Positions 34,036 through 58,397 of a stretch of 64,000 nt of DNA are shown piece after piece; the first letter of the stretch is position 1, and every line of letters starts with the position of its first letter. The DNA is taken from the NCBI GenBank assembly GCA_903877885.1, contig CAIRFN010000006.1, positions 3,342-67,341 on the forward strand, given 5' to 3'. The translations under genes and the position numbers were made by a program. Source of the DNA: an uncultured Candidatus Berkelbacteria bacterium (GTDB taxonomy: Bacteria > Patescibacteriota > UBA1384 > UBA12157). The notes below the pieces were generated by a model that saw nothing but the letters and a program-made list of their open reading frames with translations, searched no databases and was not told the DNA's origin.

Positions 34036-34122
34036 GCCCAGGTGGCGGAATTGGTATACGCTTAGCCTTGAGGTGGCTATGGGAGCAATCCCGTGCAGGT
34101 TCAAGTCCTGTCCTGGGCACCA
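34036..34122 (+). tRNA. tRNA-Leu(GAG), type II, CCA encoded
   Basis: GCCCAGG...TAGCC-TTGAGGT-GGCTA, long variable arm, GCAGG-TTCAAGT-CCTGT, CCTGGGC-A-CCA. Confidence 0.8.
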
Positions 34123-35633
34123 AATGAGACAGGTTCGCTGTTTAAGACCAATATTGAGGTATAAACAGGGCTAATTTCGGTGTTTAATAAGCGTTTTTCA
34201 TTATATCGCAATCCGGTGGGGTATATTGAACACAAGAGCGCCCGCTTCTGTTCCAGGTTTGATTTTTGATATGTTTCCACTAAATTCGCTAATTTCGTTT
34301 CGATAAATTTTATAATGAGCTCCAAGCTGTATTTGCGTAGCAAGTCGTCATTTTTGGTAATCTGAATGTCTCTCACCTTTTCTTCGACGATTTTGTTTTG
34401 TTCTTTAAACATTTCATCGGAATAAACACCCGATAAATTCTTTTCGATCAACGCCTGCCGAAATTCATACAGTTTTTTCAGTTCATCGTCCGCCTGAGCT
34501 CTTCTTTTAACCAATTCCGAGGCCCGACTGTAGTATTTTGTCCGAAGATAGGAAATAAATAATTCGATAGTTTTCTTTTTCGGAGCCACTTTGCCCAACT
34601 CTTCAATCGTTGCTTCCTCCAACAATCCTGCGGCCACATTTGAGCCGCTACAACGATGGGAACAGAAATAATGGGCGTAATGCTTCCTTTTCCCTTTACA
34701 CCAACCGCCGGTCATTGAGGCGCCACACTTGCCGCATTTTATAATTCGTCTTAATGGAAAATCGGGATTGTCTGGATTTCTTCTGGCCAGCGGCGCCGAT
34801 ATATTGACGTTTCTGCCATCCAGGACGGCCTGCACCCGATAAAATTGTTCCTCGGTTACCATCGGCGGGTGCTGACCTTGAGTTTCCAGTCCATGCTTTT
34901 TGGAGACGATTTTACCGATATAAAATTTATTGCGGAAAATTCTACTCAACTCTTGTGGGTATATTTTTCCGCCTTTACCGCTTGTAATGCCTTTTTCGTT
35001 GAGAATTACGGCCAGCTGCCGCAAAGTTTTGGTACCGGTAGCCGTTTGAGCCCAAGTTTCTTGCCAAATATCCCAAGTTTTGGAGTCTTTAATGGCATAA
35101 CCGCTTTGAGATATATAGCCAGGAGGTACGCAGCCGTTACTTGGGAGACCTGCCCAAAACCTGGCACGCATACCGTTTTTAGTTCGTTCGCTTCGGACAT
35201 CATTATCCATTTGAGCAAAACCGGCCAGCATCGTTTCGACGAATTTTTCCGTCGGGCTGTTGCCGGTCGGCTCGGTCACGGAAAGCAGTTTAATTTCCGA
35301 TTCCATCAACTTTTTCCTGATAGCCAAATAGTCCGCCGTTTGGCGCGAAATTCGGTCTAATCGGTAAACAATCACCGCGTCGACCTCTTTCCGATGTTTT
35401 CGACAATACTCTAACATCTCAATTAATACTGGTCGACCGGTAATCGTTTTGGCGGATCGTCCCTCTTCACGAAAAACCTGTAAAATTTCGATTTCCCGGC
35501 GTTCCGCTTCCTTGCGGCAAATGTCCTCCTGTGTTTCCAGCGAATAATTGCCGACTTGTTCTTCGGTTGAGACCCGAAGATAAACCACCGCCTTGGATGG
35601 TTGTTGGGTTTTACCGGCTGTAAAATGCTCCAT
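34101..35633 (-). CDS. Large serine recombinase (resolvase catalytic domain + recombinase domain + zinc ribbon); candidate integrase of an integrated element
   Basis: N-terminus AVVYLRVSTEEQ (catalytic Ser), ...DAVIVYRLDRISR; C-terminal Cys cluster CGKCGASMTGGWCKG...HYFCSHRC. The 3' end overlaps the tRNA-Leu(GAG) 3' end by ~22 nt. Confidence 0.85.
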   Translation of the reverse strand: MEHFTAGKTQQPSKAVVYLRVSTEEQVGNYSLETQEDICRKEAERREIEILQVFREEGRSAKTITGRPVLIEMLEYCRKHRKEVDAVIVYRLDRISRQTADYLAIRKKLMESEIKLLSVTEPTGNSPTEKFVETMLAGFAQMDNDVRSERTKNGMRARFWAGLPSNGCVPPGYISQSGYAIKDSKTWDIWQETWAQTATGTKTLRQLAVILNEKGITSGKGGKIYPQELSRIFRNKFYIGKIVSKKHGLETQGQHPPMVTEEQFYRVQAVLDGRNVNISAPLARRNPDNPDFPLRRIIKCGKCGASMTGGWCKGKRKHYAHYFCSHRCSGSNVAAGLLEEATIEELGKVAPKKKTIELFISYLRTKYYSRASELVKRRAQADDELKKLYEFRQALIEKNLSGVYSDEMFKEQNKIVEEKVRDIQITKNDDLLRKYSLELIIKFIETKLANLVETYQKSNLEQKRALLCSIYPTGLRYNEKRLLNTEISPVYTSILVLNSEPVSFGAQDRT

Positions 35634-36108
35634 TTTGTCCCTCCTTTGTTAATTGCTTTAATGTTTTGCCATCAAAAACTTGTTTTTCGTACTCGTCAAG
35701 CCAAGAATCTAAAAGAAATTGAAACTCGGCGATATAGACTCCCAATTCTTCATCAGGAACTCCAGCCACTTCTTCCCCAAGAATCTTTCTGGCTTTTTGA
35801 AGCTTGGTCTCTTCTTTCTTGTCTAAAAATATGGTGTTAAGCGTCTCTTCATCAATGTTTCTTCTGTCGTTAGTAAAATCCATCATTACAGCGGGGCTTT
35901 TTATGGAAGGTGGAACGGTAGGGCGGTTAATTATTGGGATATCCAATAAGGCTGTGCTGCCGGTATTTTGTTCAATTGATTTTAATTGAGATAACTGCAA
36001 TTTAACCTCCAAAGTATCGCTATATTTATATAATACTATCGTAATAGCGATACTGTCAAGAGGGTGAATTGAACCTGTAATAAGTGCGAGAAGTGGCTTT
36101 GAGATCAA
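35611..36108 (-). CDS. Hypothetical protein upstream of the recombinase (possible excisionase/RDF position)
   Basis: 165 aa ORF overlapping the recombinase start; function not recognisable. Confidence 0.3.
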   Translation of the reverse strand: MISKPLLALITGSIHPLDSIAITIVLYKYSDTLEVKLQLSQLKSIEQNTGSTALLDIPIINRPTVPPSIKSPAVMMDFTNDRRNIDEETLNTIFLDKKEETKLQKARKILGEEVAGVPDEELGVYIAEFQFLLDSWLDEYEKQVFDGKTLKQLTKEGQNGAFYSR

Positions 36109-36249
36109 AATATTATAAGTTATCCACAGGACTTTTTGTGGTCATAATAAGCAAGCAAAAAATTGACAATTTATGAGATCATCTGTTAGTATGCAGGTGA
36201 ATTAACAAGCGATAATTTCTAAAGTAAAACGGAGGGGAAGGAGTATGTT

Positions 36250-39129
36250 TTGGACATATTTTCCTACCTCGAACAAAACGATCAGATCAAAAACTATCAG
36301 CCGACACCTCAAGACGGCAAATTCGTGGCCGATCTGTTTAACGCCTTTCACCACCACCTGCCACTCGATTTTCTTCAAAAGTCATTCGTGATCTCTATTT
36401 TATTTCCGGGAACCGTTTCGTCAAAATTAGCCTTTTTCTCATATTTATCATCTCTATCGTCGCTCTCATTCGCGCCGATTTTTGTAATTATCGGTATTAT
36501 CGCTCTCTTATTTATCCTTTACCTGATATTCAAATTGTTCGGCCACAAACTGATTAAAAAAGAACCTCTTGCTTATTTGATGCTCACGTTTCCATCCAAT
36601 ACTGAAAAGTCCGCCTACGCGACAGAGCAGCTCTTTTCGCTCTTTCACGCTTTAGCCGGACAGCGTTCCTTTTTTCAAAGAATTTTAAGATCAAAAACAG
36701 AGTATTCTTTGGAAATCGTGTCGAGCCGAGAATTGGGAATAAGATATGTTATGAGTGCGCCCGCTTCCGATGCCGAAATCATCGCAAAAAGCCTTATCTC
36801 TTTTCTACCAGGTCTCTCAATCGAGGAAATTGAAGATTATCTGCCGGACAATTTTGTCTCCGATTCTTTTAAAGAAAAACAAAAAGCGGGTATCGGTATC
36901 ACCGAACTGAAATTAAAAAACGATTTCGCACTGGCCTTGGAAAAAAACAAGGTGTTGGCTGAACACGACACGATCGCCTATTTAGCCGGCAATATGACCA
37001 AACTCGCATCTGGCGAAGAGATGGTTTTTCAAATCGTCTTGACGCCCATAACCGATTCCGCCCACGGTAAAATTATGAAGCGCGTCTTAGAAATCGAAAA
37101 TAAAATTTATACCAATCAACCGCTATCGGGGGAACTGCACAAAAGTGCAATCGAGGCATCTTTATCGTGGCCGGCGGCTGTCTTCGAATGGCTCGGTGGT
37201 CTTGTCGGAGCTTTTGCCAGAACCGTTTCGGACGTGATTGGGCATTTTTTAGGTGGCTCGCAGGAATATCATGATCCGGTTTCGCAACGGTCAACTCTTT
37301 TAGCCGCCCAGCGTCAGGAGATTATTAACCCTTACGAACAGGAACTGCAAATAAGGGTTAAGGAAAAACTGGGTCAGCCGATGTTTGAAACCTCGCTTCG
37401 CCTATATGTTCGCGTCAAAAACAAGCGAGAATACGGTTTAAGAGTTTCAGGCTTTCTGGCCTCGCTCGGACAGCTTTCAGGTCGTCATCAATCATTGGTC
37501 GTCAAATCTCCGGGGTGGTTTACTTCGGTCAAGTCTGTACTCTCGGCGTTCCAGGGCCGAGAATTGTCTTCGGCCCACAATCCGATTCTTTCGGCCTCGG
37601 AACTGGCCGATCTCTATCATTTCCCATATGCAGGCACGACCAAAACCGAGGATCTTGTTAAAAGCAAAAATAATCCGCTGCCGGCGCCGTTATCGTTTAA
37701 ACAGGCTTCGACCGAGTTTGATAATGTCTTTGCTAAAAACCTTTACGGAGGCTCCGAAACTTTAATCGGACAAACCCTGGAAGAACGCCGGCGCCACACC
37801 TATATTTTAGGGGCGACGGGTTCGGGTAAAACAACCTTGTTGTCGACCATGATTTACAACGATATTGCCAATGGCAAGGGGGTAGCCGTAGTCGATCCGC
37901 ACGGACAACTGGTGGAGAATCTTTTACGGGTAATTCCCGAAGAACGCATCAAAGACGTGGTATGGTTCGCGCCCGACGACGACGGATATCCCGTCGCCTT
38001 AAACTTGTTGGAACTCGAATATGATAACACTCTTACTTCGAGTCAGCTTGAAAAACGAAAGTCTCTGGTGGTAAGCAGTATCGTCTCCATTATTAAAAAG
38101 TTTTATCCCGTAAATTCGTTCGGCCCGAGAATGGAATATGTTTTAAAAAACGCGATTCTAACCGCTCTGGAAACGCCTGAGCCGACACTGCAAACGGTTC
38201 TCGACATTTTAACCAAAGAGGCTTATCGCAAGGAGGTGATGAAAACTTTGGAAAACGAAACTTTAAAAGACTACTGGACTTACGAATTCGCCAAATACGG
38301 CGACCTTCAAAGAAACACTGTCGTCTCTCCGATTACCAACAAAATCGGCGGACTCTTAAGCTCGCCGATTAATCGCAACATCCTGCTTCAAAAGAAAAGC
38401 AAGTTGGATTTTGACGAGGTTTTGAATTCTGGTAAAATTCTGCTCTGTGATTTAAGCAAAGGTAAAATCGGCGAAGACGAATCAAGCTTTTTCGGCTCGC
38501 TGGTCATTGCCAAAATCCAGTTGGCGGCGCTCTCCAGGGCCAGGATTCCGGAAGAAAAACGAAAAGATTTTTACCTCTATGTCGACGAGTTTCAAAACTT
38601 CGCGACTAAAAGTTTCGGCGAATTGGTCTCGGAAGCCAGGAAATACCGGCTTTCAACGATTTTGGCGCATCAGTCGATTTCGCAGATCGAAGACCAAAAT
38701 ATCGTCAAAACGATCCTAGCCAACGTCGGCACGGTCATTTGTTTTAGAACGGCCAATCCCGAAGACGAGCAATTCATTCTGCCGATCTTTTCGCCCGAAG
38801 TTTCCAAACACGAAATCGGAAACTTGCCGCTTTACAACTTTTACCTGAAAATATCGGTGGGCAAACCCCAAGACGCTTTCCTAGCACAGGCAGATGATTT
38901 TACAATTGAAAGTAACGAGAAAACCGCCGAAGACACGATCAACCGTTCTCGCAAACAATACGCCGTGCCAGTCGAGACATTAAAGAAACCGCGGGCGGTG
39001 AAAACGGAGAATGAAGAAATCAAAAAAGTTAAGACTAAAGCTATCGCAAAAAAACCGATCAAACAGCCGGAAACCGAACCCGAATTAGAGCCGAAAACGG
39101 AGTCCGAAAACGGGAAAATTTGGTGGTAG
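36250..39129 (+). CDS. Membrane-anchored FtsK/HerA/TraG-VirD4-like P-loop ATPase (candidate DNA-translocation or coupling protein)
   Basis: 959 aa; N-terminal TM helices, Walker A ILGATGSGKTTLL, Walker B-like FYLYVDEFQNFA, Lys/Glu-rich C-terminal tail. Confidence 0.55.
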   Translation: MDIFSYLEQNDQIKNYQPTPQDGKFVADLFNAFHHHLPLDFLQKSFVISILFPGTVSSKLAFFSYLSSLSSLSFAPIFVIIGIIALLFILYLIFKLFGHKLIKKEPLAYLMLTFPSNTEKSAYATEQLFSLFHALAGQRSFFQRILRSKTEYSLEIVSSRELGIRYVMSAPASDAEIIAKSLISFLPGLSIEEIEDYLPDNFVSDSFKEKQKAGIGITELKLKNDFALALEKNKVLAEHDTIAYLAGNMTKLASGEEMVFQIVLTPITDSAHGKIMKRVLEIENKIYTNQPLSGELHKSAIEASLSWPAAVFEWLGGLVGAFARTVSDVIGHFLGGSQEYHDPVSQRSTLLAAQRQEIINPYEQELQIRVKEKLGQPMFETSLRLYVRVKNKREYGLRVSGFLASLGQLSGRHQSLVVKSPGWFTSVKSVLSAFQGRELSSAHNPILSASELADLYHFPYAGTTKTEDLVKSKNNPLPAPLSFKQASTEFDNVFAKNLYGGSETLIGQTLEERRRHTYILGATGSGKTTLLSTMIYNDIANGKGVAVVDPHGQLVENLLRVIPEERIKDVVWFAPDDDGYPVALNLLELEYDNTLTSSQLEKRKSLVVSSIVSIIKKFYPVNSFGPRMEYVLKNAILTALETPEPTLQTVLDILTKEAYRKEVMKTLENETLKDYWTYEFAKYGDLQRNTVVSPITNKIGGLLSSPINRNILLQKKSKLDFDEVLNSGKILLCDLSKGKIGEDESSFFGSLVIAKIQLAALSRARIPEEKRKDFYLYVDEFQNFATKSFGELVSEARKYRLSTILAHQSISQIEDQNIVKTILANVGTVICFRTANPEDEQFILPIFSPEVSKHEIGNLPLYNFYLKISVGKPQDAFLAQADDFTIESNEKTAEDTINRSRKQYAVPVETLKKPRAVKTENEEIKKVKTKAIAKKPIKQPETEPELEPKTESENGKIWW

Positions 39130-39293: not shown

Positions 39294-40070
39294 ATGACTA
39301 AACTACCCTCAATTACCAAAACACAAGAAAATATTATCCAACTCATCTATCGCTTCAGATTTCTTAATCGAATCCAAATACAAAAATTACTCAAAATTAA
39401 ATCGGTCAGTAAACTCAATTACTATCTAAAAGACCTGACCGAAAAAGAATATCTTAAGCGATCACATGAAGATACGTTCCCAAACAAACTTCGGCCGGCC
39501 GTTTACCATATCGGCCCAAACGGGATCCGGTTTTTGAGATCGCAAGATAATTGCGAAGCCGAAGCGATCAAGAATCTTTATCGGGAAGATAATCGATCAA
39601 GCAGTTTTAGGGATTGTTGTCTTCTGCTGGCCGATATTTACCTCGGATTTGAAAACCGCCAAGACAAAGATGTCCAATCGATCATGCAGATGAGAAGCGA
39701 TTATCCGGCCCATCCGCTCAAAGATATACTTAGCGATCTCAAGCCTTCCGCCTATGTTGCCCAAAAGAAATCTGGCAAGACTAAACGGTCCTTTTTGGAA
39801 ATTTTGTACGATCTGCCGGATCAATATTTAAGGCAAAGAATAAAGCAATATCTTAAATTTTATCGAGGAAGCGTTTGGGAATCAGAAACGAAAACGGATT
39901 TCCCGACGATTATGATCGTCTGCCCCAATGACAGAGTTCTGGCCTACGTCAGACATTACGTCAAAACAAAGCTCGCACAATTCGACGGATCGGATTTGAT
40001 CATCGATTTGACCACGTCCGATAAGGTTAAAGAGTTTGGCCTTACCAGTGATATTTGGAAGAAAATTTAA
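39294..40070 (+). CDS. Hypothetical protein with N-terminal winged-helix region (possibly replication-relaxation-like)
   Basis: 258 aa; ...ENIIQLIYRFRFLNRIQIQKLLKIKSVSKLNYYLKDLTEKEYLKR HTH-like N-terminus. A weak call. Confidence 0.3.
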   Translation: MTKLPSITKTQENIIQLIYRFRFLNRIQIQKLLKIKSVSKLNYYLKDLTEKEYLKRSHEDTFPNKLRPAVYHIGPNGIRFLRSQDNCEAEAIKNLYREDNRSSSFRDCCLLLADIYLGFENRQDKDVQSIMQMRSDYPAHPLKDILSDLKPSAYVAQKKSGKTKRSFLEILYDLPDQYLRQRIKQYLKFYRGSVWESETKTDFPTIMIVCPNDRVLAYVRHYVKTKLAQFDGSDLIIDLTTSDKVKEFGLTSDIWKKI

Positions 40071-40086: not shown

Positions 40087-40794
40087 GTGTTTCTATCGGC
40101 GATAAAATTTGCTATAGTTTGGGCAAGAAAGGATAATATGGAAATATTCGTTGAAGAATATCTGGCGAAATCGGTGCCGAATACAAAACAGTGGGTTGAA
40201 AAAATTATTGACAAATGCGCCAGGAGAATAAAATTTAAGGATGCCAAAATCGGTGTTTTTCTAACGCCGGGATCGAATGGCTTGGAAGATGTCAACGGTA
40301 TCGGAGGGTACTGCCCTTCGAGCGCTCTTGTCGAGATAAGCGTCGATTTAAATCATCCGAATTTTGATTTTGATTCGCTTAAATTAACTTTGGCTCACGA
40401 ACTTTACCATCTCGCGCGCCGACAATCGGGAATCAAAATCGGCGAGAGTACGGTTTTAGAATGCCTAATCAGCGAAGGGTTGGCCGATCGATTTGTCTAC
40501 GAAACTTACGGATTAACACCCGTCTGGATTTCTAAACTAGGTGGAACGGATGCGGCCAAGTTACTAAAGAAAATATCCCCAATTTTGGATGAAAAAATTG
40601 ATGATGAAATTTACAACGATTGGTTTTTAAGCGGTTCAAAGAAACTAGGCGTTGCTAAATGGTCGGGCTACTCGCTTAGTTACGCGTTAGTGTCGCAGAT
40701 ATTAAAGAAGGATAAAAAGTTGAATTCCATATCATTTTTAGATGTTCCCGCGAAAGAAATCGCCGATATAACCACTTTGTATGATAAAGTATGA
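40087..40794 (+). CDS. HExxH-motif protein (putative zinc-dependent peptidase, DUF2268-like)
   Basis: LAHELYHLARRQ contains HELYH (HExxH); 235 aa. Confidence 0.4.
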   Translation: MFLSAIKFAIVWARKDNMEIFVEEYLAKSVPNTKQWVEKIIDKCARRIKFKDAKIGVFLTPGSNGLEDVNGIGGYCPSSALVEISVDLNHPNFDFDSLKLTLAHELYHLARRQSGIKIGESTVLECLISEGLADRFVYETYGLTPVWISKLGGTDAAKLLKKISPILDEKIDDEIYNDWFLSGSKKLGVAKWSGYSLSYALVSQILKKDKKLNSISFLDVPAKEIADITTLYDKV

Positions 40795-40845: not shown

Positions 40846-41178
40846 TTAGTACTCTTTGGCAAGCATTATAGTCACAACCCGTTTGCATGTATCTGAAAGC
40901 GGATCCTCAAAATGTGTTAAAGTCGGATCAAAGTAATCGATCTTCCAAAGTACTCTTTGACCTTTCCAATCAAAATATCCCAAATCGTGCCAGCCGTAAA
41001 AATCATCATGCTTGTTAAACTTATTAAAAGAACGGACTGCATAAAGCAATTCTTCAATATCCGGTAATTCAGCCGCCTTGTTAGTTAATACAACATTTAA
41101 ACCTAGCTGTCGGGCAACATCGTTGCGCCTCGCCATCTCTTTGAACTTATTTTCCTGATTATCCATTTTAACCTCCAA
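40846..41178 (-). CDS. Uncharacterised protein, paralog of the adjacent ORF
   Basis: 110 aa; shares ...LLxAVRxFxxFxxxDDxYGxHDxG...WxxQRVxWKIDYxD...DPxSxxCxRxxTxMLAxEY with the 41240..41650 ORF. Confidence 0.45.
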   Translation of the reverse strand: MEVKMDNQENKFKEMARRNDVARQLGLNVVLTNKAAELPDIEELLYAVRSFNKFNKHDDFYGWHDLGYFDWKGQRVLWKIDYFDPTLTHFEDPLSDTCKRVVTIMLAKEY

Positions 41179-41239
41179 TAATTAAATTAAATTAAAGAAA
41201 AAGGCCTGAAAGTCACCACAACTTCCAGGCCCTCATCTC

Positions 41240-41650
41240 TCAATACTCCTCAGCCAGCATCACCGTTAACCTGCGCTGGCACTCCGGAGATGTCGGGTCT
41301 TGCCAATAGCCCAATGATTGATCGTAGTAATCAATCTTCCAAAAAACTCTTTCCCGCTGCCAAATGAGCGAACCGAAGTCATGCTCACCATAGGGATCAT
41401 TGTCATCGGTAAACCGATCGTAATCGCGCACCGCGGCTAGTAACCCTTCGGGATCCGGTAAGTCCCGTGCTCCAGAAGTCATTAACACTCCATATCCCAT
41501 CCTACGGAACCCATCGTTCTTTTGCGCCACGTCCAAAGTTTGTACACAGTTCATTTTGACCTCCATTCTATTATCTTTAATCTCAAGAACAAGCGTATCG
41601 ACCTTCCGCCTGTCGACTGGAAGGCAAGGACAGCACGCTAAAATAGTCAA
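41240..41650 (-). CDS. Uncharacterised protein, paralog of the 40846..41178 ORF (N-terminally extended)
   Basis: 136 aa; C-terminal 100 aa align with the neighbouring ORF. Confidence 0.45.
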   Translation of the reverse strand: MTILACCPCLPVDRRKVDTLVLEIKDNRMEVKMNCVQTLDVAQKNDGFRRMGYGVLMTSGARDLPDPEGLLAAVRDYDRFTDDNDPYGEHDFGSLIWQRERVFWKIDYYDQSLGYWQDPTSPECQRRLTVMLAEEY

Positions 41651-41833: not shown

Positions 41834-42214
41834 ATGTCAAATTTAGAAAGTGAACAAGGAGAATTTAAATCAGAAGAAGAAAGACAAGCCGCAGAAGGTT
41901 TTGAAGCACCGGTTAATGGCCAACAAGAAATCAAAGAAACTGAAAATATCACTGTCCCGGAAAGAAATGGAAGAAATTTTATTCAGTCTATGCGAGAAAA
42001 ATTTCCCAAGATATCCGATGAAGACAAAAAAGCAATTACGGCAGGCATCCTGAGTGGTCTTATGGCGGTTACGGGAGTTGGCATGGCTCTTGGCGCAGGC
42101 ATTGATAAAGGGCTTACCGGAGCAGAAGCAATAGAGTTGGCTTCAGCTGGTGCTGGTTTTATGATGACGGGAATAATTGCATTAGGATCATTAGGGCAGA
42201 GAAGAACGCAATAA
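41834..42214 (+). CDS. Small acidic protein with Gly-rich hydrophobic C-terminus
   Basis: 126 aa, RBS AAAGGAG; N-terminal GEFKSEEERQAAEGFE motif shared with the 43444 ORF. Confidence 0.4.
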   Translation: MSNLESEQGEFKSEEERQAAEGFEAPVNGQQEIKETENITVPERNGRNFIQSMREKFPKISDEDKKAITAGILSGLMAVTGVGMALGAGIDKGLTGAEAIELASAGAGFMMTGIIALGSLGQRRTQ

Positions 42215-42227
42215 AAAGGAGATTATA

Positions 42228-42530: not shown

Positions 42531-42561
42531 ATAAACGACGAAAATAAAGAAGGAGACAAAG

Positions 42562-43428: not shown

Positions 43429-43443
43429 CTAAAAAGGAGAAAA

Positions 43444-49893: not shown

Positions 49894-50781
49894 ATGGAGA
49901 GTAATATGAGTGAAAATCTTCAACCATTTGAAATACAGCGCGAAGCACTTGCTGAACGGCTAAAACTCAAAGACCAGTGGGCATCACAGGTTAAGATGCT
50001 GAATGAAGCGGGTGTTTTGGAATTGCTTCCAGAGAGTCAGGAGCTAGGAATTATCGGAATTGATGGACAAGAATATGCAATACCTAGTTATGAACAAATT
50101 TTAGGTCGTATTACTCAAGGAAAAGCTGAGATTTTAGAAAATCAAACAGAAAACGGTTATAAGCAATTAATTTTAACTCCTTTCGCAATGCCTTTGAGGC
50201 AACTGTGTAAATTAGTTGAAGGATCATTTAAGAAAGTCTTATCAGAAAACCAAGTTGTTGATGCTTATGGAAGTGATGAAAGAATCAATTCTGATAACTT
50301 TATTGAAGATAATGGAAATATTCTCGATTCCGATATTAACGGAGAAATGGTTTACTACCCAAACTCAGACGATAGCAAAGACGGTTTGACAAAAATAGAT
50401 TGCATTAAAGAAAATGGTGGTTGGGAAATTGATTTTATTGCCAAAGAACCTCAGAAATACATACAAGATATCAACAAGCAAAAAAAGGCCATGGTGCAAG
50501 GTGGATTTAGAGGATTAACTCTTGAAAGCTGGTTGACTCAGTCAATGAATTTTTTCCAGAACGAGAAAAAGTTTTCAGATTATCTCGAACCATGTCTTTT
50601 GGCGGGATCGTCTCTGCGAGAGAAGAGGACTATCCCGGCAGCATGGTTTGCTGATAATCGATCTAATTACAAAGGTAAATATTTAGTAATAAAAACTTTA
50701 GAAGAAAATCGTAATCAAAATAAAGCATTTGGCGGTTTTTCGCAAACTGACGGAAATGCGCGTTTCAGCGTGAATTTATAA
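49894..50781 (+). CDS. Tandem paralog 3
   Basis: Start chosen at ATG 49894 after RBS AAAGGAG; the ORF track starts earlier at 49807. N-terminus MESNMSENLQPFEIQREALAERLKLKDQW... Confidence 0.6.
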   Translation: MESNMSENLQPFEIQREALAERLKLKDQWASQVKMLNEAGVLELLPESQELGIIGIDGQEYAIPSYEQILGRITQGKAEILENQTENGYKQLILTPFAMPLRQLCKLVEGSFKKVLSENQVVDAYGSDERINSDNFIEDNGNILDSDINGEMVYYPNSDDSKDGLTKIDCIKENGGWEIDFIAKEPQKYIQDINKQKKAMVQGGFRGLTLESWLTQSMNFFQNEKKFSDYLEPCLLAGSSLREKRTIPAAWFADNRSNYKGKYLVIKTLEENRNQNKAFGGFSQTDGNARFSVNL

Positions 50782-50790
50782 AGGGAAAAT

Positions 50791-51675
50791 ATGAATGAAT
50801 CCTTACAACCATTTGAAGTCCAAAGAGAAGCTTTAACTGAAAGGCTAAAACTCAAAGAGCAGTGGGAATCGCAAATAAAAATACTTAACGAAGTTGGAAT
50901 TCTTGAAATTCTACCTGAAAGTCAGGAGCTGGGAATCATTGGAATTGATCAAAAAGAATATCCAATCCCCAATTATGAAGATATTCTTAATAAAATTACT
51001 CAAGAACAAGCAGACTTAGTAACCCAAAAAACTGAACAGGGGTTTAATAAGTTAATATTGGTTCCCTTCGCTAAATCCCTTCAAGAAACCATAGAACTCT
51101 ATGCTAGATTATTAGTCCAAAAAAAACACGAAAAGACCCTTGTAGGGGCTGAAAACGAAGAATTTGACCTCGATATCAATAATCCTATCGTTGATATGAC
51201 TAAAAATGATTCTTTGTTTTATATTCCATCAAATGGAAAAAGATTCACGAAATCGGAATTTCTTGTAAGCGAAATGCGTTACCCGGGTTGGCAAGTCGCA
51301 TTAATCGAAGATTCTCCCGTCCCGTTCGAGAAAGATTCAGATAAAAAGGAATATGGCTACAAACAACCAAATGGCGATTTAGTAAGAGATTGGAGTCATC
51401 AGCTAAAGCTAATGAAAGAGAACGAATCTTATATCGGCGAAGAGGAAATATCTCCAGAGGCATGGCTTGCATATGCCATCACTAACTTAAAGGAAAAAAA
51501 CCAGCAGATTGATTTTCAAAATGAATCAATTGACAGGTGTTGGCTTGGTGCTTTTAGTAAAAAAGGAGAAACTGTTTACTCTTTATTTAAAAACAATCAA
51601 ATTAACTTTCATATCTATTCTCCCTTTGAGAGGGAGAAATCAAAAGCTATTTTTAGGTCGGTCGTACAGATTTAA
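50791..51675 (+). CDS. Tandem paralog 4
   Basis: MNESLQPFEVQREALTERLKLKEQWESQIKILNEVGILEILPESQELGIIGID... Confidence 0.6.
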   Translation: MNESLQPFEVQREALTERLKLKEQWESQIKILNEVGILEILPESQELGIIGIDQKEYPIPNYEDILNKITQEQADLVTQKTEQGFNKLILVPFAKSLQETIELYARLLVQKKHEKTLVGAENEEFDLDINNPIVDMTKNDSLFYIPSNGKRFTKSEFLVSEMRYPGWQVALIEDSPVPFEKDSDKKEYGYKQPNGDLVRDWSHQLKLMKENESYIGEEEISPEAWLAYAITNLKEKNQQIDFQNESIDRCWLGAFSKKGETVYSLFKNNQINFHIYSPFEREKSKAIFRSVVQI

Positions 51676-51704
51676 ACTATTTAAATTTAGATTGAAAAGG
51701 TAAT

Positions 51705-52592
51705 ATGAATGAATCATTACAACCATTTGAAATCCAAAGAGAATCCTTAGCTGAAAGACTAAAACTAAAAGACCAATGGGAATCTCAAATTCGTGTACTA
51801 AATGAGGCTGGTATTTTAGAAATTCTTCCTGAAAGCCAAGAATTGGGAGTTATTGGCGTTGATGGTCAGCAATATCCGATACCAGAATACTCTGATGTGC
51901 TTAACCAACTAACACCAGAAAATTTGGAATTATTAGAGGCAAAACAGGAAGAAGATTATAACAAACTAATTATTACGCCGTTTGCGATGCCTTTAAAACA
52001 ACTAATTGATAGATATTCTTCTCTTCTAAAGAGAAAAGACAAAACAGGAGAACTTAAAGATTCACAAGGAAATAGTATAAATATATCTGACGGTGATGAA
52101 CCTATTAAGTTACCTGTTAAACTTATCGAAGATGGTTACGATGACACACTCTTGTATTTTGGAAAATTGGGCGAAGAACAAGAGACTGGTAAAACAAAAA
52201 AGAAATCGATAGAGCAAGGAAAAATTTGGCACTTTTGTCTGGTTCAGGATACAAACTCTCTTGAAAACAAGAGGATTGAGACGAAAATCGATTCTTATCT
52301 TCAAGAAGGCGGTTTATCTGGATATACGCTTGAAGATTGGTTGATGCATGCAATTACGAATTTGCAAGAAAGTGGAAAACAAATAGATTGCACTGATTCC
52401 AAAGAAATAATCCCAAATTGGTTAATGGGATCGTACCTTCCAAAAGATGATTGTTATTTCAGAGCAGCCTATGATATTCACGATCCCTCTTCTACTGGCG
52501 CTGTCATCGGCGGCGCAAAAGGAGAAATTTTGAAAAGTCGAAAGAATTTTATTAATTTTAGAAACTTGATTGAGCTAGGAAGCAATTTATGA
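51705..52592 (+). CDS. Tandem paralog 5
   Basis: MNESLQPFEIQRESLAERLKLKDQWESQIRVLNEAGILEILPESQELGVIGVDG... Confidence 0.6.
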   Translation: MNESLQPFEIQRESLAERLKLKDQWESQIRVLNEAGILEILPESQELGVIGVDGQQYPIPEYSDVLNQLTPENLELLEAKQEEDYNKLIITPFAMPLKQLIDRYSSLLKRKDKTGELKDSQGNSINISDGDEPIKLPVKLIEDGYDDTLLYFGKLGEEQETGKTKKKSIEQGKIWHFCLVQDTNSLENKRIETKIDSYLQEGGLSGYTLEDWLMHAITNLQESGKQIDCTDSKEIIPNWLMGSYLPKDDCYFRAAYDIHDPSSTGAVIGGAKGEILKSRKNFINFRNLIELGSNL

Positions 52593-53506
52593 ATGAATCC
52601 TTGCAACCTTTTGAAACCCAGTGTGAGGCACTTGCCGAACGATTAAAACTCAAGGAACAGTGGGAATCACAGGTTCAGTTTCTCAATGAAGTAGGTATTT
52701 TAGAATTATTACCTGAATCGCAAGAATTGGGCATTGTTGGAATTGATGGTCGGGAATACCCAGTTCCTGAATATTCGGAGATAATGCAAAAAATCACCCC
52801 GGAAAAGGCGGAGATTTTGGAAAGAAAATCCGAACAAGGATTTAATAAAATGCTCTTAGTGCCTTTCGCGATACCTTTAGAAAGGTTGATAGATCGTTAT
52901 GAACGAGAATTAGTTAAACAATCTGAAAATGGCGGTGTAATCAATTCTAATGGTGAAAAGATAGAAATTAATCCGAAAAATCCAATAACTTTTATGGATA
53001 ATGAATTTAAAAGCTCAGATCTAACTAAAAAGTTAGCCTACTACCCAACTCATCCCGATTATGGTGGCGAAACGAAATCAGAAATAATTTCAAAAGATAG
53101 CCCCTGGAAATTTCATTTTGTTGAAGATTTAGACCATATTCCTCAGCAAGAGGAAGGTCAAACTATTGGCGGCAGAAAACAGCTTGAAACAGGTATGAGT
53201 CCAAGACAATATTTACTTCAGGTACAACGAAATGCTATGTATTCGAACGAACAAGGTATGACACCAGAAGACTGGCTTTGTAATGCAATTTTAAATTTAA
53301 GAAATAACGGAAAGCAAATTGATAGCGCTGGAAGAAACGGTCAAACTTGTTATTTAATCGGTTCTGGTTATCAATATGGCCCGTCAGGTGAAGAAATAGC
53401 TAGTGCTGGATGGGGTCGCATAAAAAGTGATTCTGCTTTTTTGGGTGCCGACTTCAATAGTGAATCACAACAAAATTTTGGCGTTAGAACTGTAGTAGAA
53501 ATCTAA
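52589..53506 (+). CDS. Tandem paralog 6
   Basis: MNESLQPFETQCEALAERLKLKEQWESQVQFLNEVGILELLPESQELGIVGIDG...; C-terminus ...NFGVRTVVEI. Confidence 0.6.
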   Translation: MNESLQPFETQCEALAERLKLKEQWESQVQFLNEVGILELLPESQELGIVGIDGREYPVPEYSEIMQKITPEKAEILERKSEQGFNKMLLVPFAIPLERLIDRYERELVKQSENGGVINSNGEKIEINPKNPITFMDNEFKSSDLTKKLAYYPTHPDYGGETKSEIISKDSPWKFHFVEDLDHIPQQEEGQTIGGRKQLETGMSPRQYLLQVQRNAMYSNEQGMTPEDWLCNAILNLRNNGKQIDSAGRNGQTCYLIGSGYQYGPSGEEIASAGWGRIKSDSAFLGADFNSESQQNFGVRTVVEI

Positions 53507-53515
53507 AGGAATATT

Positions 53516-54421
53516 ATGACAGAAAACTTACAACCATTCGAAATTCAACGCGAAGCATTTGCCGAGCGGTTAAATCTGAAAGAACAATGGGAATCACAGG
53601 TCAAAATACTTAATGAAGTAGGTATTCTTGAGATACTGCCCGAAAGTCAGGAATTAGGGATCATTGGTATTGACGGTCAAGAGTATCCAGTACCAGATTT
53701 CCAGGAAATTATGTCTCGAATTACCCCAGAACAGATGGAAGTTTTAGAAAAGAAAAATGAGCAAGGTTTTAACAAAATGCTTATTACTCCCTTTGGCATG
53801 CCTCTGGACATCCTAATTAGTAGGTATAAAGAACTCTTACTTAAAAAAGATTCTGAAAGCACGTTACTGGCTACCGATGGCTCGAAACTTGATCTTGATA
53901 GAAATGAACCAACATGGGTTTGGGAAGGATACAACGGTGCTGACGCAAACGGAGGGCTAGTTTATTTTCCAGAAAGCTTCACCCAAAATCATGAGGGGCA
54001 AACTAAACAAGAGATATTGGCTAACTCAGGTGCTTTCAAAATCGAGTTTATTGAAGATACGCCAGACATGCCTCGAAACGAACAAACTCAAGGCGGCCGC
54101 ATTAAACCTACTCCAGGTAAAAAAGCGTCTCAGTATCTTGAAATCATGCAAAACGATGAAAATATGACCAACGAGCATGGTCTCACCCCTGAAACATGGC
54201 TGACTTATGCTATTACTAACTTAAAAGAAAGAAACCAACAAATAGATGACTGGCAAGGTCAAGGTAAGGGTTCCTGGCTTACCGGTGCTTATTTCCCGGC
54301 TTCTGGCTTTGTCCCGTGCGCGGACTGGGACCGTGACGCTCGTCTGGCGTACTTGGACGGGAGCGGTCCCTCTGTCTCGTTTTCGGGCTTTGGGTGTCGC
54401 TCCTCGGTGGAAATAAAATAG
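53516..54421 (+). CDS. Tandem paralog 7; DGR target gene carrying variable repeat VR2 at its 3' end
   Basis: Conserved N-terminus; C-terminal …VPCADWDRDARLAYLDGSGPSVSFSGFGCRSSVEIK is the VR copy. Confidence 0.7.
   Translation: MTENLQPFEIQREAFAERLNLKEQWESQVKILNEVGILEILPESQELGIIGIDGQEYPVPDFQEIMSRITPEQMEVLEKKNEQGFNKMLITPFGMPLDILISRYKELLLKKDSESTLLATDGSKLDLDRNEPTWVWEGYNGADANGGLVYFPESFTQNHEGQTKQEILANSGAFKIEFIEDTPDMPRNEQTQGGRIKPTPGKKASQYLEIMQNDENMTNEHGLTPETWLTYAITNLKERNQQIDDWQGQGKGSWLTGAYFPASGFVPCADWDRDARLAYLDGSGPSVSFSGFGCRSSVEIK
54311..54412 (+). repeat. DGR variable repeat VR2
   Basis: Matches the template repeat except at its adenine positions; shares the identical 3' end GGGTGTCGCTCCTCGGTGGAA. 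Confidence 0.8.
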
Positions 54422-54707
54422 TTTTGAAATTTGTTCTTTAATTTTTCTTTATATTTTTAACTTTAGGTGCTGGCGTTAGCCAGCTAGACGCAATTGGGCT
54501 AATGAACCCGCCTTGGGCGGGGCGCCCAAAATTTGTTTTAGAAAATAAGTGAAACTTCGCTAACCGCGAACACTTTCGAAAAACAGCAAACAAATGAATT
54601 TCCACGTGAGCCCCGTTCATTCCGATTTGAGAGGAATGAAATATGAAAGCTAATTCTAAATTGGATGGCTGCGGCTGTCTGATGAATAATGCGGCGGGGT
54701 CACAAAT

Positions 54708-54821
54708 GGTTCTGACAATGTCCCGAACGCGAACTGGAACCGTGACGATCGTCAGGCGAACTTGAACAGGAACGATCCCTCTAACTCGAATTCGAACATT
54801 GGGTGTCGCTCCTCGGTGGAA
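54708..54821 (+). repeat. DGR template repeat (TR), non-coding, rich in AAC codons
   Basis: GGTTCTGACAATGTCCCGAACGCGAACTGGAACCGTGACGATCGTCAGGCGAACTTGAACAGGAACGATCCCTCTAACTCGAATTCGAACATTGGGTGTCGCTCCTCGGTGGAA. Every mismatch to VR1 and VR2 lies at an A of this copy. Confidence 0.85.
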
Positions 54822-54842: not shown

Positions 54843-55884
54843 GGCTTAATATCAAAAACGTGCACCTAGTTTTGCAAAATATAGTTAATTATTTTGTCTT
54901 TTAGTTCTTTGGTAAAGCCTCTGTGAATGTTTACTTTTTGTTTTAGCCAACTAAAACTGCCCTCTAAAGAATTGGTGGTTTTGGGGATATTAAGTTCAGG
55001 ATATTTTAGATACGTAAAAAGATATGGCAAATTAGTTTTAAGGCTTCTAAAAGCCGCTCGCGTTCTCTTGTGAGTATAATGCCATCGGTTTGTAATTTGG
55101 TCGGTTGTTCTCTCCTTTAGAAACTCTTGCCACTTTTGGTGCCATAGGAGTAGTTTTTGGGTAAATTCTTTCTCGGTGGCATAGGTCAAAGTATCGCTAA
55201 TAGCTTTGAGTTCTAAGCTTGCTTCTAACTTTGGGTTTAAGGTTAAATAACGCTGGATAATTTGTTTTTGATGAAAATGACACATCTGGACTGGGACATC
55301 TAAAAATAGATTTCTCACTCCGGGTCTGCCATCCAAAACAATAGCTTTAAACTTAAAGCCTTGATTTTCTAGGGTAATTCTTCCCATTAGGTACTCGTTG
55401 ATTGTCTCGAATATAACAGGTTTGAAATAGAGATTACGTTTGAGCTCGACCGCTCTAAAAACCAGAAAACCGTATGCTCTGCCAAAGAAAGTAGCATCGA
55501 CAACAAAAACTAGACCATCAGGTGTGGTCTTCTTTTTAATGGTTTTCGCTTTCTCGATTTTAGTTCTAACCCAGTTGATGCTTTTGCCGTACTCGCAAGA
55601 GAGATTCTTGAGAGTCTGGCGCTTTCCGACATATTTTCCCAGGATAATTTGTTCTAATTTTTGAGGTCTGGATTTCGTTTGAAAATAACTTTGGCAATCT
55701 TTGCAAAAATATCTTTGCTTTTTTGCCGAGCGAGTACTTTTACCCTTTTTTACGCAACGATTTGAACTGCATTTAGGACAGTTTTTTTAACCATGTTTAC
55801 ATCCTCCTGTAAATTAACTTTAAATTACTGGTTCAAATATATCACATTCAGGTTAAGTTAGGTGCACGTTTTTGATATTAAGCC
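54843..55884 (-). mobile_element. IS1-family-like insertion sequence (1042 bp) with 26-bp terminal inverted repeats and 8-bp target-site duplication TAAGAAAG
   Basis: IRL GGCTTAATATCAAAAACGTGCACCTA (54843..54868) is the exact reverse complement of IRR (55859..55884). The direct repeat TAAGAAAG sits at 54835..54842 and 55885..55892. Confidence 0.8.
54866..55794 (-). CDS. IS1-like transposase (InsA-type zinc finger fused to DDE domain); reading frame requires a -1 shift in an A7 run at codon 4
   Basis: After RBS AGGAGG and ATG at 55794, the 0-frame stops after 14 codons. The -1 frame gives ...CPKCSSNRCVKKGKSTRSAKKQRYFCKDCQSYF... (the IS1 InsA C-x2-C…QRY-x-C-x2-C finger). It continues to ...TNSLEGSFSWLKQK... 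and a stop at 54866. Confidence 0.6.
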
Positions 55885-56202
55885 TAAGAAAGAGATCGAA
55901 TCCATCCGCCAAGCATGCGGCCGATTTCTCTTAAATCAGATTGCGCTTGGAAAATTTTGGTTTCATTCCCTAAATGCAGTTCCAAGCAGGCTCTTAGTTT
56001 CAGAGTAATTATTTCTAATCGGCCGGAAGCTTTAAGGAGATAAGAAGATTTTAGGGTTTTCGGCGCATTTTTAGCCATAATTAGCTCTTCAAGCAGATCC
56101 AAAATCGAATTTTCAAGACTCATGCCCAAAGAATAGCGCCATCTTTTTTCGAGCTTGGCGTTAAATTCAAGAATGAATTTATATAAATCGTAGGATTGAT
56201 TA

Positions 56203-56222
<20 letters not shown>
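55884..56222 (-). CDS. avd: DGR accessory variability determinant (Avd-like four-helix-bundle protein)
   Basis: 112 aa; ...RWRYSLGMSL... and C-terminal ...EIGRMLGGWIRSLS resemble Bordetella bAvd (…EVGRILGSWIARV…). Adjacent to the RT gene. Confidence 0.7.
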
Positions 56223-57214
<992 letters not shown>

Positions 57215-57246: not shown

Positions 57247-57972
57247 TCACCGCCTATTGTGTGCGGTTTCGATGAAGCGTTTGATTAGCAACTTAATACC
57301 AAGTTTTATAACCTGATAACCGTTCAATAAGCACCATAATAACGCCGGAAATATGACTCCCGTTAAAAACGTCTTGATTGTCTGGAAAAAGTTGTATTTC
57401 GAGTTTGCGACTAAACTCCGGTATAATCTCTCGTACTGGAATTTGTAGCCTTCGACCATTTTTTTGTTTAAATCAAGATAGGTCATAACCTGCATGGCCG
57501 CGTTTTCGTCTACGATTCGACGCATCATTTCCCGACTTTCCCTTTGGGACAAAATATTCAGACTTCCTTCCCAAAGTATTTCTCGATCAATAACGGCCAC
57601 CTTTTCATGAATCAATCCGGGTAGTTGGAAAACACAGACTCCCAACTCTTCGTAATCTTTTATAGCACAGGAAATCTCTGTTCGCATTAGATAGTCGTGC
57701 TCCTCAAGAGGACGAGTGAAGATAAAAACACAAATATTTCTTCTTCGAAGCTCAGTTAATGATTTTCTGAAAAACTCCGATCGGAACTTGCTTACAAATG
57801 GACTGTAAATGATAATTTCTTTTTTGGCCTTGAGCATATCTTGGACGAAAACCCGATAAAATGTCCTTTCATTATAAAGATCGAGTTTTTGTAATTCATG
57901 TAATTTTTTGGCGTCGATTTCGTTCTGGATGTTCATCAAATGTTGTCTATGCGCCGGCGAATTAATTGGCAT
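57247..57972 (-). CDS. Phospholipase D-family (single HKD motif) nuclease-like protein with hydrophobic C-terminus
   Basis: ...LIHEKVAVIDREILWEGSLNI... = HxK(x)4D(x)6GSxN motif; 241 aa. Confidence 0.6.
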   Translation of the reverse strand: MPINSPAHRQHLMNIQNEIDAKKLHELQKLDLYNERTFYRVFVQDMLKAKKEIIIYSPFVSKFRSEFFRKSLTELRRRNICVFIFTRPLEEHDYLMRTEISCAIKDYEELGVCVFQLPGLIHEKVAVIDREILWEGSLNILSQRESREMMRRIVDENAAMQVMTYLDLNKKMVEGYKFQYERLYRSLVANSKYNFFQTIKTFLTGVIFPALLWCLLNGYQVIKLGIKLLIKRFIETAHNRR

Positions 57973-58047
57973 GGTTTTCTCCTTTTTGTTAAAACTATCG
58001 TTCGAAGTCTTTTAATATTTTGGTTTTTATGATACTATGACCTCATA

Positions 58048-58254
58048 ATGGATAATGAAAAAGCAAGAATTAATCTGGTTGGCAAACTTCGTAAAGAAAG
58101 AGAAAAGGCAAGACTGACTCAGGCAGAAGTTGCCACGGCTTCTGGTATTGGCATAAATTATTATGCTCAGATTGAGCGTGGCGAAGTAAATTTCTCGGTT
58201 GAAAAGTTGCTAAGCATAATGAAGAAGCTGAAAATAAAGTCGATAGATATCTAA
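58048..58254 (+). CDS. XRE-family helix-turn-helix transcriptional regulator
   Basis: 68 aa; ...LTQAEVATASGIGINYYAQIERGEVNFSVEKLLSIMKKL is a Cro/CI-type HTH. Confidence 0.7.
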   Translation: MDNEKARINLVGKLRKEREKARLTQAEVATASGIGINYYAQIERGEVNFSVEKLLSIMKKLKIKSIDI

Positions 58255-58397
58255 TCTGGTTAATCTTTTTCCTTGTATGTGCTCACTAAAAAACTGAGCC
58301 ACCTTAAAAGGTGTTCAAATGAAAGTGCATCAAGGGCACCAAACAAAAAACAGACCAGAGTTTTTAATCTAAAAATTCCAGTCTGTTTTTTAGTTTC

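Follow-up and report, generated by a model that had tools for sequence, protein, structure and literature searches.

Integrative and mobilizable elements (IMEs) that combine a serine integrase with a MobC relaxase of family PF13814 and a VirD4 coupling protein are known from streptococci as IME_Class_8 (Coluzzi et al. 2017, PMC5357655). We analyzed a stretch of 64,000 nucleotides of contig CAIRFN010000006.1 from an uncultured Candidatus Berkelbacteria bacterium (the window), in which positions 34,125-58,343, about 24.2 kb adjoining a tRNA-Leu(GAG) gene, very probably constitute an IME of a host resembling the candidate phyla radiation (CPR, or Patescibacteria). Like IME_Class_8, the element has a serine integrase, a PF13814 relaxase and a VirD4-type coupling protein, lacks a type IV secretion system (T4SS), and would be mobilizable in trans. 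The likeness is one of architecture, and the hosts differ, a Firmicutes there and a CPR bacterium here. Furthermore, the element in the window uses the CCA end of tRNA genes as its site, possesses a backbone with DUF3768 and DUF2268 genes, carries a diversity-generating retroelement (DGR) as cargo, and encodes a much larger coupling protein with an N-terminal domain of ~480 aa.

The integrase belongs to the large serine recombinases (LSRs). As in A118/LI, Bxb1, phiC31, TP901-1, CcrAB, and TndX, resolvase, recombinase and zinc-ribbon domains are combined, and as with the LSRs of phages and of integrative and conjugative elements (ICEs), there is a short core common to the attachment sites attP and attB, the attP lies beside the integrase gene, and a zinc-ribbon motif is offset by 5 bp (PMC3783163). 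However, known LSRs use protein-coding or intergenic sites, whereas the family of the window LSR uses tRNA 3' ends, with open reading frames (ORFs) that read into the tRNA. According to Mageeney et al. (PMC7192596), the use of tRNA or tmRNA genes by serine integrases had not been described before, and they saw it in only 14 of 297 calls, all computational. Islander-type islands with tyrosine integrases are likewise found on the 3' side of a tRNA that they leave intact, and their integrase gene is at the end next to the tRNA; in contrast to them, the element in the window has no tyrosine integrase and has a 10-bp core instead of a long displaced tRNA repeat, and its crossover would lie at the CCA end and not in the anticodon or T-loop. 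A further parallel, cited in PMC7192596, is phiRSM, in which a serine-family recombinase integrates at a tRNA gene (tRNA-Ser), although phiRSM is a filamentous phage and uses a small resolvase-like S-Core enzyme without the recombinase and zinc-ribbon domains.

The tRNA-Leu(GAG) gene was located at 34036..34122 on the + strand (ARAGORN; Rfam tRNA, 52.3 bits), with its T-loop GTTCAA at 34099-34104. The LSR gene (34101..35633, - strand, 510 aa) indeed terminates inside the 3' end of this tRNA, as the original prediction had proposed: the two overlap by 22 nt, the stop codon falls within the T-loop, and the final seven codons plus the stop are the complement of the tRNA-Leu 3' end. The protein matched Resolvase (PF00239, 8.8e-33, residues 15-158), Recombinase (PF07508, 4.2e-13), and Zn_ribbon_recom (PF13408, 2.6e-8), all above the gathering thresholds, and its translation contains the serine nucleophile motif YLRVSTEEQ. 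A metagenome scan with the coupling protein of the window yielded 27 loci, against which the window proteins were compared by tblastn. By tblastn, a small conserved protein of 129-165 aa (35611..36108, -) was found directly upstream of the LSR, always in the same orientation, in L098, L100, L101, L105, L130, L133, and L134. Its C-terminal ~75 aa are conserved in the alignment, and it has no match in Pfam, PADLOC or PHROG; it is a candidate directionality or accessory factor.

The ends of the element were placed by comparison with these relatives. The 10-bp sequence GGGCACCAAA is present at both junctions, at 34115-34124 and at 58334-58343. On the left, attL (+ strand) comprises a B arm, read from the sequence as the tRNA segment from T-loop to CCA (34099-34122), and the core GGGCACCAAA (34115..34124), assigned from L130, L133, and L134. 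In these three elements, whose LSRs are 91%, 85%, and 72% identical to that of the window, respectively, the homology to the window starts exactly at ...CCAAATGAGACAGG, and different tRNA-type sequences flank the elements to the left of the shared CCAAA start. Read in the tRNA orientation, the window, L130, and L133 are homologous rightwards from CACCAAATGAGACAGGTT, which is the C-terminal coding region of the LSR, and the acceptor-stem bases to the left of it differ among the three (GTCCTGGGC, CCTAAGCGC, and GCCAAGGGC). The switch from host to element DNA is therefore situated in about GCACCAAA, at 34117-34124.

On the right, direct evidence came from a sister element, L105, with an LSR 66% identical to that of the window. 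This locus reads ...GGGTTCGAGCAGAGGCGAGAACACACCACCAAA followed directly by TTGGACAGGCAC into the LSR gene, with the coupling-protein module on the opposite side, and it therefore represents an intact attP. The loci L112 and L113 share the same 57 nt with the P arm of L105 through CCAAA and continue into unrelated DNA that opens with a terminator hairpin, and hence represent attR. The right junction of the window is of like form: GGTGTTCAAATGAAAGTGCATCAAGGGCACCAAA is followed by CAAAAAACAGACC... and then by a hairpin. The attR of the window (58311..58343, +) thus consists of a P arm with a T-loop-like GTTCAA (58313-58318) and the core GGGCACCAAA (58334-58343), which sits in a 400-nt gap beyond the XRE regulator gene, the last element-type gene. 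The hairpin, a bidirectional terminator on the host side (B') at 58345..58391 (inverted repeat I1, 22-nt arms, 86% complementary), is presumably the native terminator of tRNA-Leu(GAG), and the attB reconstructed from the sequence would accordingly read tRNA-Leu(GAG) and then directly its terminator.

The two P arms, in the window and in L105, have GTTCRA 26 nt before CCAAA, as compared with 21 nt in the tRNA. This 5-bp offset agrees with what is known of the zinc-ribbon-domain motif of LSR sites, which lies 5 bp nearer the centre in attB than in attP; the shift was established with LI integrase and has been proposed for further LSRs (PMC3783163). In the window, the pattern GTTCRA-N20-CCAAA occurs twice, where 0.24 matches are expected, and the other match is inside a gene at 29977. 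The offset is visible in the left half-sites only; the dyad symmetry of the P and P' arms in the reconstructed attP is near chance (13/35 by eye), and a possible weak inverted pair of GTNTTNAA centred on the core ACC was not relied on. The window was also searched for a long direct repeat of the 3' part of the tRNA, such as the islands of tyrosine integrases leave behind; apart from further tRNA-Leu genes, the matches were short chance ones (9-11-mers), and no tRNA-derived repeat exceeded 10 nt. We further weighed a crossover in the T-loop, at the GTTCAA common to 34099 and 58313, which would account for the contig breaks at 34099 described below, and rejected it since the resulting attB is not a valid tRNA and the acceptor stems of the relatives differ. 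The recombinase-flanking repeats that the original prediction had suggested looking for are thus defined as cores and arms at 34115-34124 and 58334-58343, and its weak candidate for the second attachment site, the short repeat of the tRNA end at ~58334..58343, was borne out by the core, the GTTCAA offset, and the comparison with L105, L112, and L113.

The targeting of tRNA genes proved to be a property of the family. At least 928 LSR homologs were found with E ≤ 1e-50, more than 120 of them with at least 57% identity, and the DNA past the LSR stop codon, wherever available, is a tRNA 3' end, with L105 and its intact attP, which has no tRNA, as the sole exception. Among LSRs of 60-72% identity, L098 abuts tRNA-Asp(GTC), L100 tRNA-Ser(TGA), L135 tRNA-Leu(TAA), and L136 tRNA-Gln(CTG); tRNA-Ala(TGC) is abutted by L134 (72%) and also by L096, whose LSR is only 29% identical. 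L133 (85%) has a tRNA-like end cut by the contig edge. L130 (91%) abuts a 57-nt 3' fragment of tRNA-Arg(GCG), which ends in CCA (L130 3240-3420; also in L131 and L132) and is located 36 nt from a complete tRNA-Arg(GCG) without an encoded CCA.

The relatives furthermore share a recurring backbone composed of the LSR, the small protein, the coupling protein, a Replic_Relax relaxase, in some cases DUF2268, and DUF3768. L100 reproduces the order and orientations of the window: tRNA-Ser(TGA), LSR(-), small ORF(-), coupling protein(+), relaxase, DUF3768(-), a large DGR target(+) with a C-type-lectin (CLec) fold, Avd(-), and reverse transcriptase (RT)(+). In L107/L108, which have the closest coupling protein (83-93% identity), a PLD-family nuclease gene(-), an XRE gene(+), the recombinase gene(-), and the coupling-protein gene(+) are contiguous; this is the order expected if the right and left ends of the window element join, as upon circularization. 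In L133, the PLD gene is again distal, beyond the coupling protein and relaxase. The homology of the relatives from CCAAA onwards and the synteny of the right end in L107 and L133 thus support the earlier proposal of an integrated element of ~24 kb at tRNA-Leu(GAG).

These comparisons bear on a different delimitation, in which a shorter element of ~34.1-41.7 kb, with the LSR, coupling-protein, relaxase, DUF2268, and DUF3768 genes, lies beside an independent chromosomal DGR island and the repeat at 58334 is coincidental. The GC content would fit this, since it is distinctly raised only to about 42 kb (0.40-0.47 over 33-42 kb, compared with about 0.32-0.40 elsewhere), so that the higher GC originally claimed up to the cluster of repetitive extragenic palindromic (REP) sequences stood for 33-42 kb but not beyond. 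In addition, the genes at 41.8-48 kb have no homologs in the related loci, the 10-mer alone is at chance level, and chromosomal DGRs are frequent in CPR genomes (PMC10907252). The tetranucleotide composition, however, deviates across the whole 33-61 kb, where it correlates at 0.47-0.79 with the remainder of the window, as against 0.75-0.94 outside (mostly at least 0.85), values inflated somewhat by the fact that the outside windows are part of their own reference. DGR parts are linked to the coupling-protein module in L095, L097, L100, L105, and L134, with the same order from tRNA to RT in L100, and PLD or XRE genes adjoin the LSR/coupling-protein backbone in L107 and L133. Moreover, the stretch 58313-58343, with its core and +5 GTTCAA, is built like the attP of L105, and a pattern search revealed no att-like site near 41.7 kb. 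We therefore regard the shorter element as quite improbable and retain the end at 58,343.

We then examined the transfer module of the 24.2-kb element. The type IV coupling protein (T4CP; 36250..39129, +, 959 aa) exhibited the domains TrwB_AAD_bind (5e-12) and TraG-D_C (2.2e-8), both above the Pfam gathering thresholds, with Walker A GATGSGKT, Walker B LYVDEFQNF, and a long N-terminal membrane domain whose hydrophobic segments were read in the translation; its relatives share 57-93% identity. NCBIfam returned TraD and VirD4-like matches below cut-off. The membrane P-loop ATPase that had been described as of FtsK or coupling-protein architecture is thus a VirD4/TrwB-type coupling protein, and not FtsK-like. 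The next gene (39294..40070, +, 258 aa), formerly read as a winged-helix protein, is real but encodes a candidate relaxase of the MOB_C superfamily (Replic_Relax, PF13814, 4.1e-9), a family that comprises MobC relaxases (PMC5357655) and has a PD-(D/E)XK fold (PMC3424549). It follows the T4CP in all of the relatives. Downstream of it, the predicted HExxH protein was confirmed as a DUF2268 putative Zn-dependent protease (40087..40794, +; PF10026, 4e-24), also present in L097, L111, and L119, and two DUF3768 genes (40846-41178 and 41240-41650, together 40846..41650, -; PF12599, 1.3e-19 and 3.3e-22) represent a conserved backbone feature that comes after the relaxase in most relatives. Except for the coupling protein, neither VirB4 nor any other T4SS family was detected among the ORFs submitted to Pfam across 34-58 kb, and the element would therefore be mobilizable and not self-transmissible. 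The suggestion that it is possibly transferable thus holds for the T4CP and relaxase genes, but not in the sense of self-transmission.

A self-transmissible ICE, or double-stranded DNA transfer by a single FtsK-like translocase as in actinomycete ICEs (AICEs), would be an alternative use of these genes. As in AICEs, one large membrane ATPase stands beside a replication or relaxation protein, and the T4CP has a weak match to FtsK_SpoIIIE (1.8e-4, below cut-off). On the other hand, the 24 kb yielded neither VirB4 nor other genes for mating-pair formation, the best matches of the ATPase are VirD4, TrwB, and TraD rather than FtsK or TraB, and a MOB_C relaxase implies single-strand transfer; such a transfer mode is thus very improbable.

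Nor do the data favor a prophage or phage satellite unrelated to conjugation, which we consider extremely improbable. Its attraction is that LSRs are typical phage integrases, that DGRs are frequent in phages, that the T4CP matches phrog_5156 (4.8e-62) and weakly a terminase PHROG, and that L130, with its 91% identical LSR, is near a Peptidase_M23 gene, with a terminase gene ~10 kb away on the other side. Nevertheless, no capsid, portal, tail or terminase family was found among the window ORFs tested with Pfam and PHROG (some small ORFs were outside the PHROG scan), no Phage_integrase (tyrosine integrase) match was obtained with Pfam among the tested ORFs, the ATPase with its TrwB and TraG-D_C domains is always followed by a MOB_C relaxase, and a viral contig collection scanned with the T4CP contained no relative. 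We also observed that phrog_5156, an uncharacterised family, matches the T4CP over almost its full length. Relatives of the T4CP have therefore been catalogued as "viral", though none was found in the scanned IMG/VR contigs.

The principal cargo of the element is the DGR. CPR DGRs with CLec targets, often fused to AAA ATPases, are known from Paul et al. 2017 (summarised in PMC10907252), and the window resembles them in the arrangement of RT, Avd and template repeat (TR), in adenine-specific mutagenesis, and in the C-terminal CLec variable region. It differs from those described there in that its targets are stand-alone, forming seven tandem paralogs, in that the DGR is carried on a defined IME, and in that the RT contains a polymorphic (GA)n tract. 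The seven paralogs of ~300 aa (T1-T7, 47979..54421, +) are DGR variable proteins of the CLec fold, as judged from an AlphaFold2 model of paralog 7 (pLDDT 83.7, pTM 0.89). A profile of the seven, for which Pfam has no model, retrieved 822 representative clusters, 314 of them with E ≤ 1e-30, and longer members carry N-terminal AAA_5 ATPase domains; the family is the "AAA ATPase + CLec" target class of CPR summarised in PMC10907252. The TR (~54707..54821, +) aligns with the C-terminal coding ends of paralogs 7 and 2, which contain the live variable regions VR7 (~54306-54412, +) and VR2 (~49675-49789, +). All of the mismatches between TR and VR are at TR adenines, 21/21 for VR7 and 18/18 for VR2, and the DGR is therefore genuine and recently active.

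The remaining DGR components are an intact accessory protein, Avd (55884..56222, -; PF22296, 2.5e-10; NF033474, 1.3e-16), 69% identical to its homolog in L100, and an RT that is frameshifted (56203..57214, +; RVT_1 on both halves). The RT is split at a (GA)18 tract (56722-56757). The tract has 17 repeats in L122, 18 in L124/L128, and 20 in L123/L126, all of the same strain, and no in-frame allele was seen among them; (GA)16, 19 or 22 would give a single RT of 335-339 aa with the GIPIGNLTSQIFANIYL motif, of the IGNLTSQ type, which therefore appears only after frame correction. The (GA)n tract could represent slipped-strand phase variation of the DGR, or sequencing or assembly noise. Furthermore, an IS256-family (Zn-variant) insertion sequence (IS) of 1,042 bp (54843..55884, -; NF048019, 3.5e-63) sits precisely in the space that separates the TR from the stop codon of avd. 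Its ends are 25-bp inverted repeats (a 23-bp core by repeat search), flanked by an 8-bp target duplication, TAAGAAAG, at 54835-54842 and 55885-55892, and its transposase looks split, with a 173-aa ORF that spans positions 134-299 of the 304-position profile. With the IS256 beside the TR and the RT out of frame, the DGR is now crippled or switched off. In a 61-kb assembly, ERZ1426562, the left flank of the IS instead consists of Acyl_transf_3, methyltransferase, and Asn synthase genes, which is due to another copy of the IS, to a rearrangement mediated by it, or to a chimeric join.

This state raises the question of whether the element, though real, is a fixed and decaying remnant that neither excises nor transfers now and whose DGR is inactive. 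Only the integrated state was seen in contigs from many samples, none of the assemblies, with (GA)17, 18 or 20, has the RT in frame, the IS256 separates the TR from avd and RT and its own transposase looks split, and the sister L112 has lost the N-terminal ~420 residues of the T4CP. On the other side, none of the four ORFs for the LSR, its partner protein, the T4CP, and the relaxase is truncated, and the att core has been conserved without a mismatch. The substitutions that set VR2 and VR7 apart from the TR are confined to adenines, and the absence of decay at other bases implies recent DGR activity; furthermore, the length of (GA)n varies between samples as a reversible switch would, and rare excision is invisible in consensus assemblies. 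We thus consider a decayed remnant unlikely, while granting it appreciable weight. The loss in the sister element is seen at L112 1291-1560 and also in L113, where in both cases ~200 nt lie between attR and the region matching T4CP residue 427.

Several observations weigh against the assignment of the locus as a delimited IME of this family. On its own, the GGGCACCAAA repeat does not exceed chance expectation (blastn-short E = 7.5, with numerous other recurring 10-mers from the 165-nt query), so that the second att site derives its significance from the comparative evidence only, not from the bare 10-mer, and no convincing mirror of the GTTCRA motif was seen in the B' and P' arms. Searches for GTTCRA-N19-21-CCAR in L096, L098, L100, L134, L135, and L136 gave no convincing right end; tRNA-end k-mers were ambiguous for L096, L098, and L100, L135 offered a weak 7-mer candidate only, and Pfam analysis of distal L098 detected accessory genes only, with no clear end. 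The PF13814 match of the relaxase candidate is modest (37.2 bits, against a cut-off of 25.3), no NCBIfam match accompanies it, and no origin of transfer (oriT) was identified. The window contains no T4SS gene, and a helper T4SS in trans is assumed from the literature on Patescibacteria (PMC12102498). In L130, the upstream neighbors of the LSR are the small partner ORF and Peptidase_M23, with no T4CP; the LSR and T4CP are therefore not obligately coupled, and the integration cassette is exchanged between backbones.

The same-strain contigs add to these points. Look-ups of exact proteins (p146 of the left flank, the LSR, the XRE regulator, and p205 of the right flank) retrieved contigs of many samples at 100% identity (99.9% in the case of L005), and all of them are integrated, with ~17 contigs for each flanking gene and over 10 samples represented; neither an empty attB nor an excised circular junction was present among the retrieved contigs. 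The comparison with an empty tRNA-Leu(GAG) site in close relatives, which the original prediction had envisaged, thus found none, the retrieved contigs being of the same strain and the collections containing no close host relative. Indeed, a genome-contig scan with the HI0933-like flank gene gave at best 57% identity, with no synteny and no tRNA-Leu nearby, and its 415-aa form had no exact record in the look-up. Finally, some contigs end inside the tRNA 3' end, at 34099 (L005 and L006), 34093 (L002), and 34122 (L008, L009, and L012). The breaks at 34093 and 34122 are in Logan contigs, and those at 34099, at the border of T-stem and T-loop in two independent assemblies, are not explained by the proposed attP. 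The shared ends at 34093-34122 suggest a branch in the assembly graph, that is, population heterogeneity at the segment from T-loop to CCA, and for the break at 34099 one possibility is the same element in a second tRNA identical from the T-loop onwards.

Taking the evidence together, we propose the following course of events for the IME. The LSR would have recombined attP with the 3' end of tRNA-Leu(GAG) as attB, with a crossover in the shared core GGGCACCAAA at the CCA end that duplicates only 10 bp, and since the crossover would be at the CCA end, the tRNA stays intact. The enzyme would read the T-loop GTTCAA and the acceptor stem as the B arm, and in the P arm a GTTCAA that resembles the T-loop but is 5 bp more distant from the core. 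The small protein encoded upstream of the LSR may act as the directionality factor. After excision, the MOB_C relaxase candidate would nick an oriT, and the VirD4-type coupling protein would pass the DNA to a T4SS supplied in trans. The DGR cargo, in turn, would diversify the ligand-binding site of the C-terminal CLec fold in two of the seven paralogous, predicted cytoplasmic proteins. Of all this, the gene content, the att cores and arms, the targeting of tRNAs across the family, and the authenticity of the DGR are established by the data above; excision, transfer, and regulation are inferred. In its widest form, the proposal is that a large patescibacterial family of serine integrases uses the universally conserved T-loop and the encoded CCA of tRNA genes as attB and mobilizes IMEs that ferry DGRs between CPR cells via chromosomal T4SSs, with an RT made phase-variable by (GA)n; we hold this to be a real possibility, somewhat short of an even chance. 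In that case, the acceptor-stem and T-stem bases between T-loop and CCA would determine which tRNA (Leu, Asp, Ser, Ala, Gln, Arg, and others) is targeted, the P arm would mimic the T-loop at the +5-bp offset, and IMEs with divergent MOB_C relaxases would explain many of the thousands of "orphan" T4CPs of Patescibacteria.

The other genes of the element include a cargo operon (41834..44602, +) of four small acidic proteins and an HD_4 protein similar to RelA/SpoT-type hydrolases (42562-43428, +; PF13328, 7.9e-13; TIGR00691, partial; phrog_990), the other proteins of which have no family match. A gene from the ORF list for a 1030-aa protein (44894..47986, +), with no match in Pfam, PADLOC or PHROG, runs into the beginning of the paralog array, with which it probably shares a transcript. 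At the right end are a nuclease-like protein of the PLD family, which resembles DrmC and MkoC and has a hydrophobic C-terminus (57247..57972, -; PF13091, 1.2e-9), and the XRE-type helix-turn-helix regulator, the last gene of the element (58048..58254, +; HTH_3, 5.8e-12; "control protein" models). The cargo named in the original prediction, namely the SpoT-type HD hydrolase, the DGR with its target array, the IS, the PLD nuclease, and the XRE regulator, was accordingly all recovered by these family matches and, for the DGR, by the adenine-specific mismatches together with the Avd and RT matches.

Outside the element, some features of the flanks are recorded here. Between the HI0933-like gene and the tRNA lies a gene for a 146-aa ORFan (33514-33954), which found only itself among 5.8 billion clustered proteins. 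Just outside attR, three tandem units of ~45-54 nt (58398-58530) each consist of TTAACCATA and a hairpin CCACYT-NNN-ARGTGG, one of them holding a 12-nt tandem duplication; in the window, the motif is exact only there, with three variants of one mismatch at 22.9-25.7 kb. As an oriT or iteron array, this cluster was rejected, being outside attR and absent from the relatives. The REP cluster, given earlier as the right limit, is thus correct in that the element ends just before it, and the hairpin cluster itself is outside the element. Further to the right, at 59404-59612, a tRNA-like gene seems to be split, with a 5' half GGGCGGTTGGCTCAGTTGGTAGAGCGCTTCGTTTAT and a 3' end ...AGAGG...CCTCTATTGCCCACCA that can pair as an acceptor stem, a ~23-nt hairpin insert in the T-loop, and a fold z of -2.8. 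A complete tRNA-Val(TAC) (59461-59532) lies between the halves, inside a 13-bp helix formed by ttaccccgttaaat and atttaacggggcaa, and possible readings of the whole are a tRNA nested in another, an unusual intron, and a pseudogene. The half-tRNA upstream of this tRNA-Val is resembled by a degenerate second 5' copy of tRNA-Ala in L096 (11672-11790), identical up to AGGTCAGGAG at the T-stem border and situated 26 nt upstream of the targeted tRNA-Ala.

The element is of a known kind, an IME with a serine integrase, a MOB_C relaxase, and a VirD4 coupling protein, and is unusual in its CPR host, in an LSR that acts at the tRNA CCA end with a T-loop-mimicking attP arm, and in its DGR cargo; the targeting of tRNA CCA ends by LSRs and the carriage of DGRs in CPR are the new aspects. 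Serine integrases have been thought to avoid tRNA genes, and the CCA-targeting family provides a natural series of related enzymes with different conserved targets. Their inferred recognition logic, with the T-loop as zinc-ribbon motif, the acceptor stem as specificity determinant, and the CCA as crossover, would be relevant to integrase engineering. For annotation, the defined boundaries make the 24 kb recognisable as accessory DNA. A survey of Patescibacteria counted 5,713 VirD4-type T4CPs, mostly far from virB4, and 109 relaxases, 58 of them MOB_C, with chromosomal T4SSs widespread, and took conjugation to be marginal there, barring relaxases of a very different kind (PMC12102498). The IME family could explain part of this imbalance, because its relaxase reaches just 37 bits against Pfam and has no NCBIfam match. 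T4CPs beside weak-scoring MOB_C relaxases and integrases thus suggest that mobilizable elements are common in CPR, and the family offers a possible horizontal route for DGRs, which are unusually abundant in CPR episymbionts.

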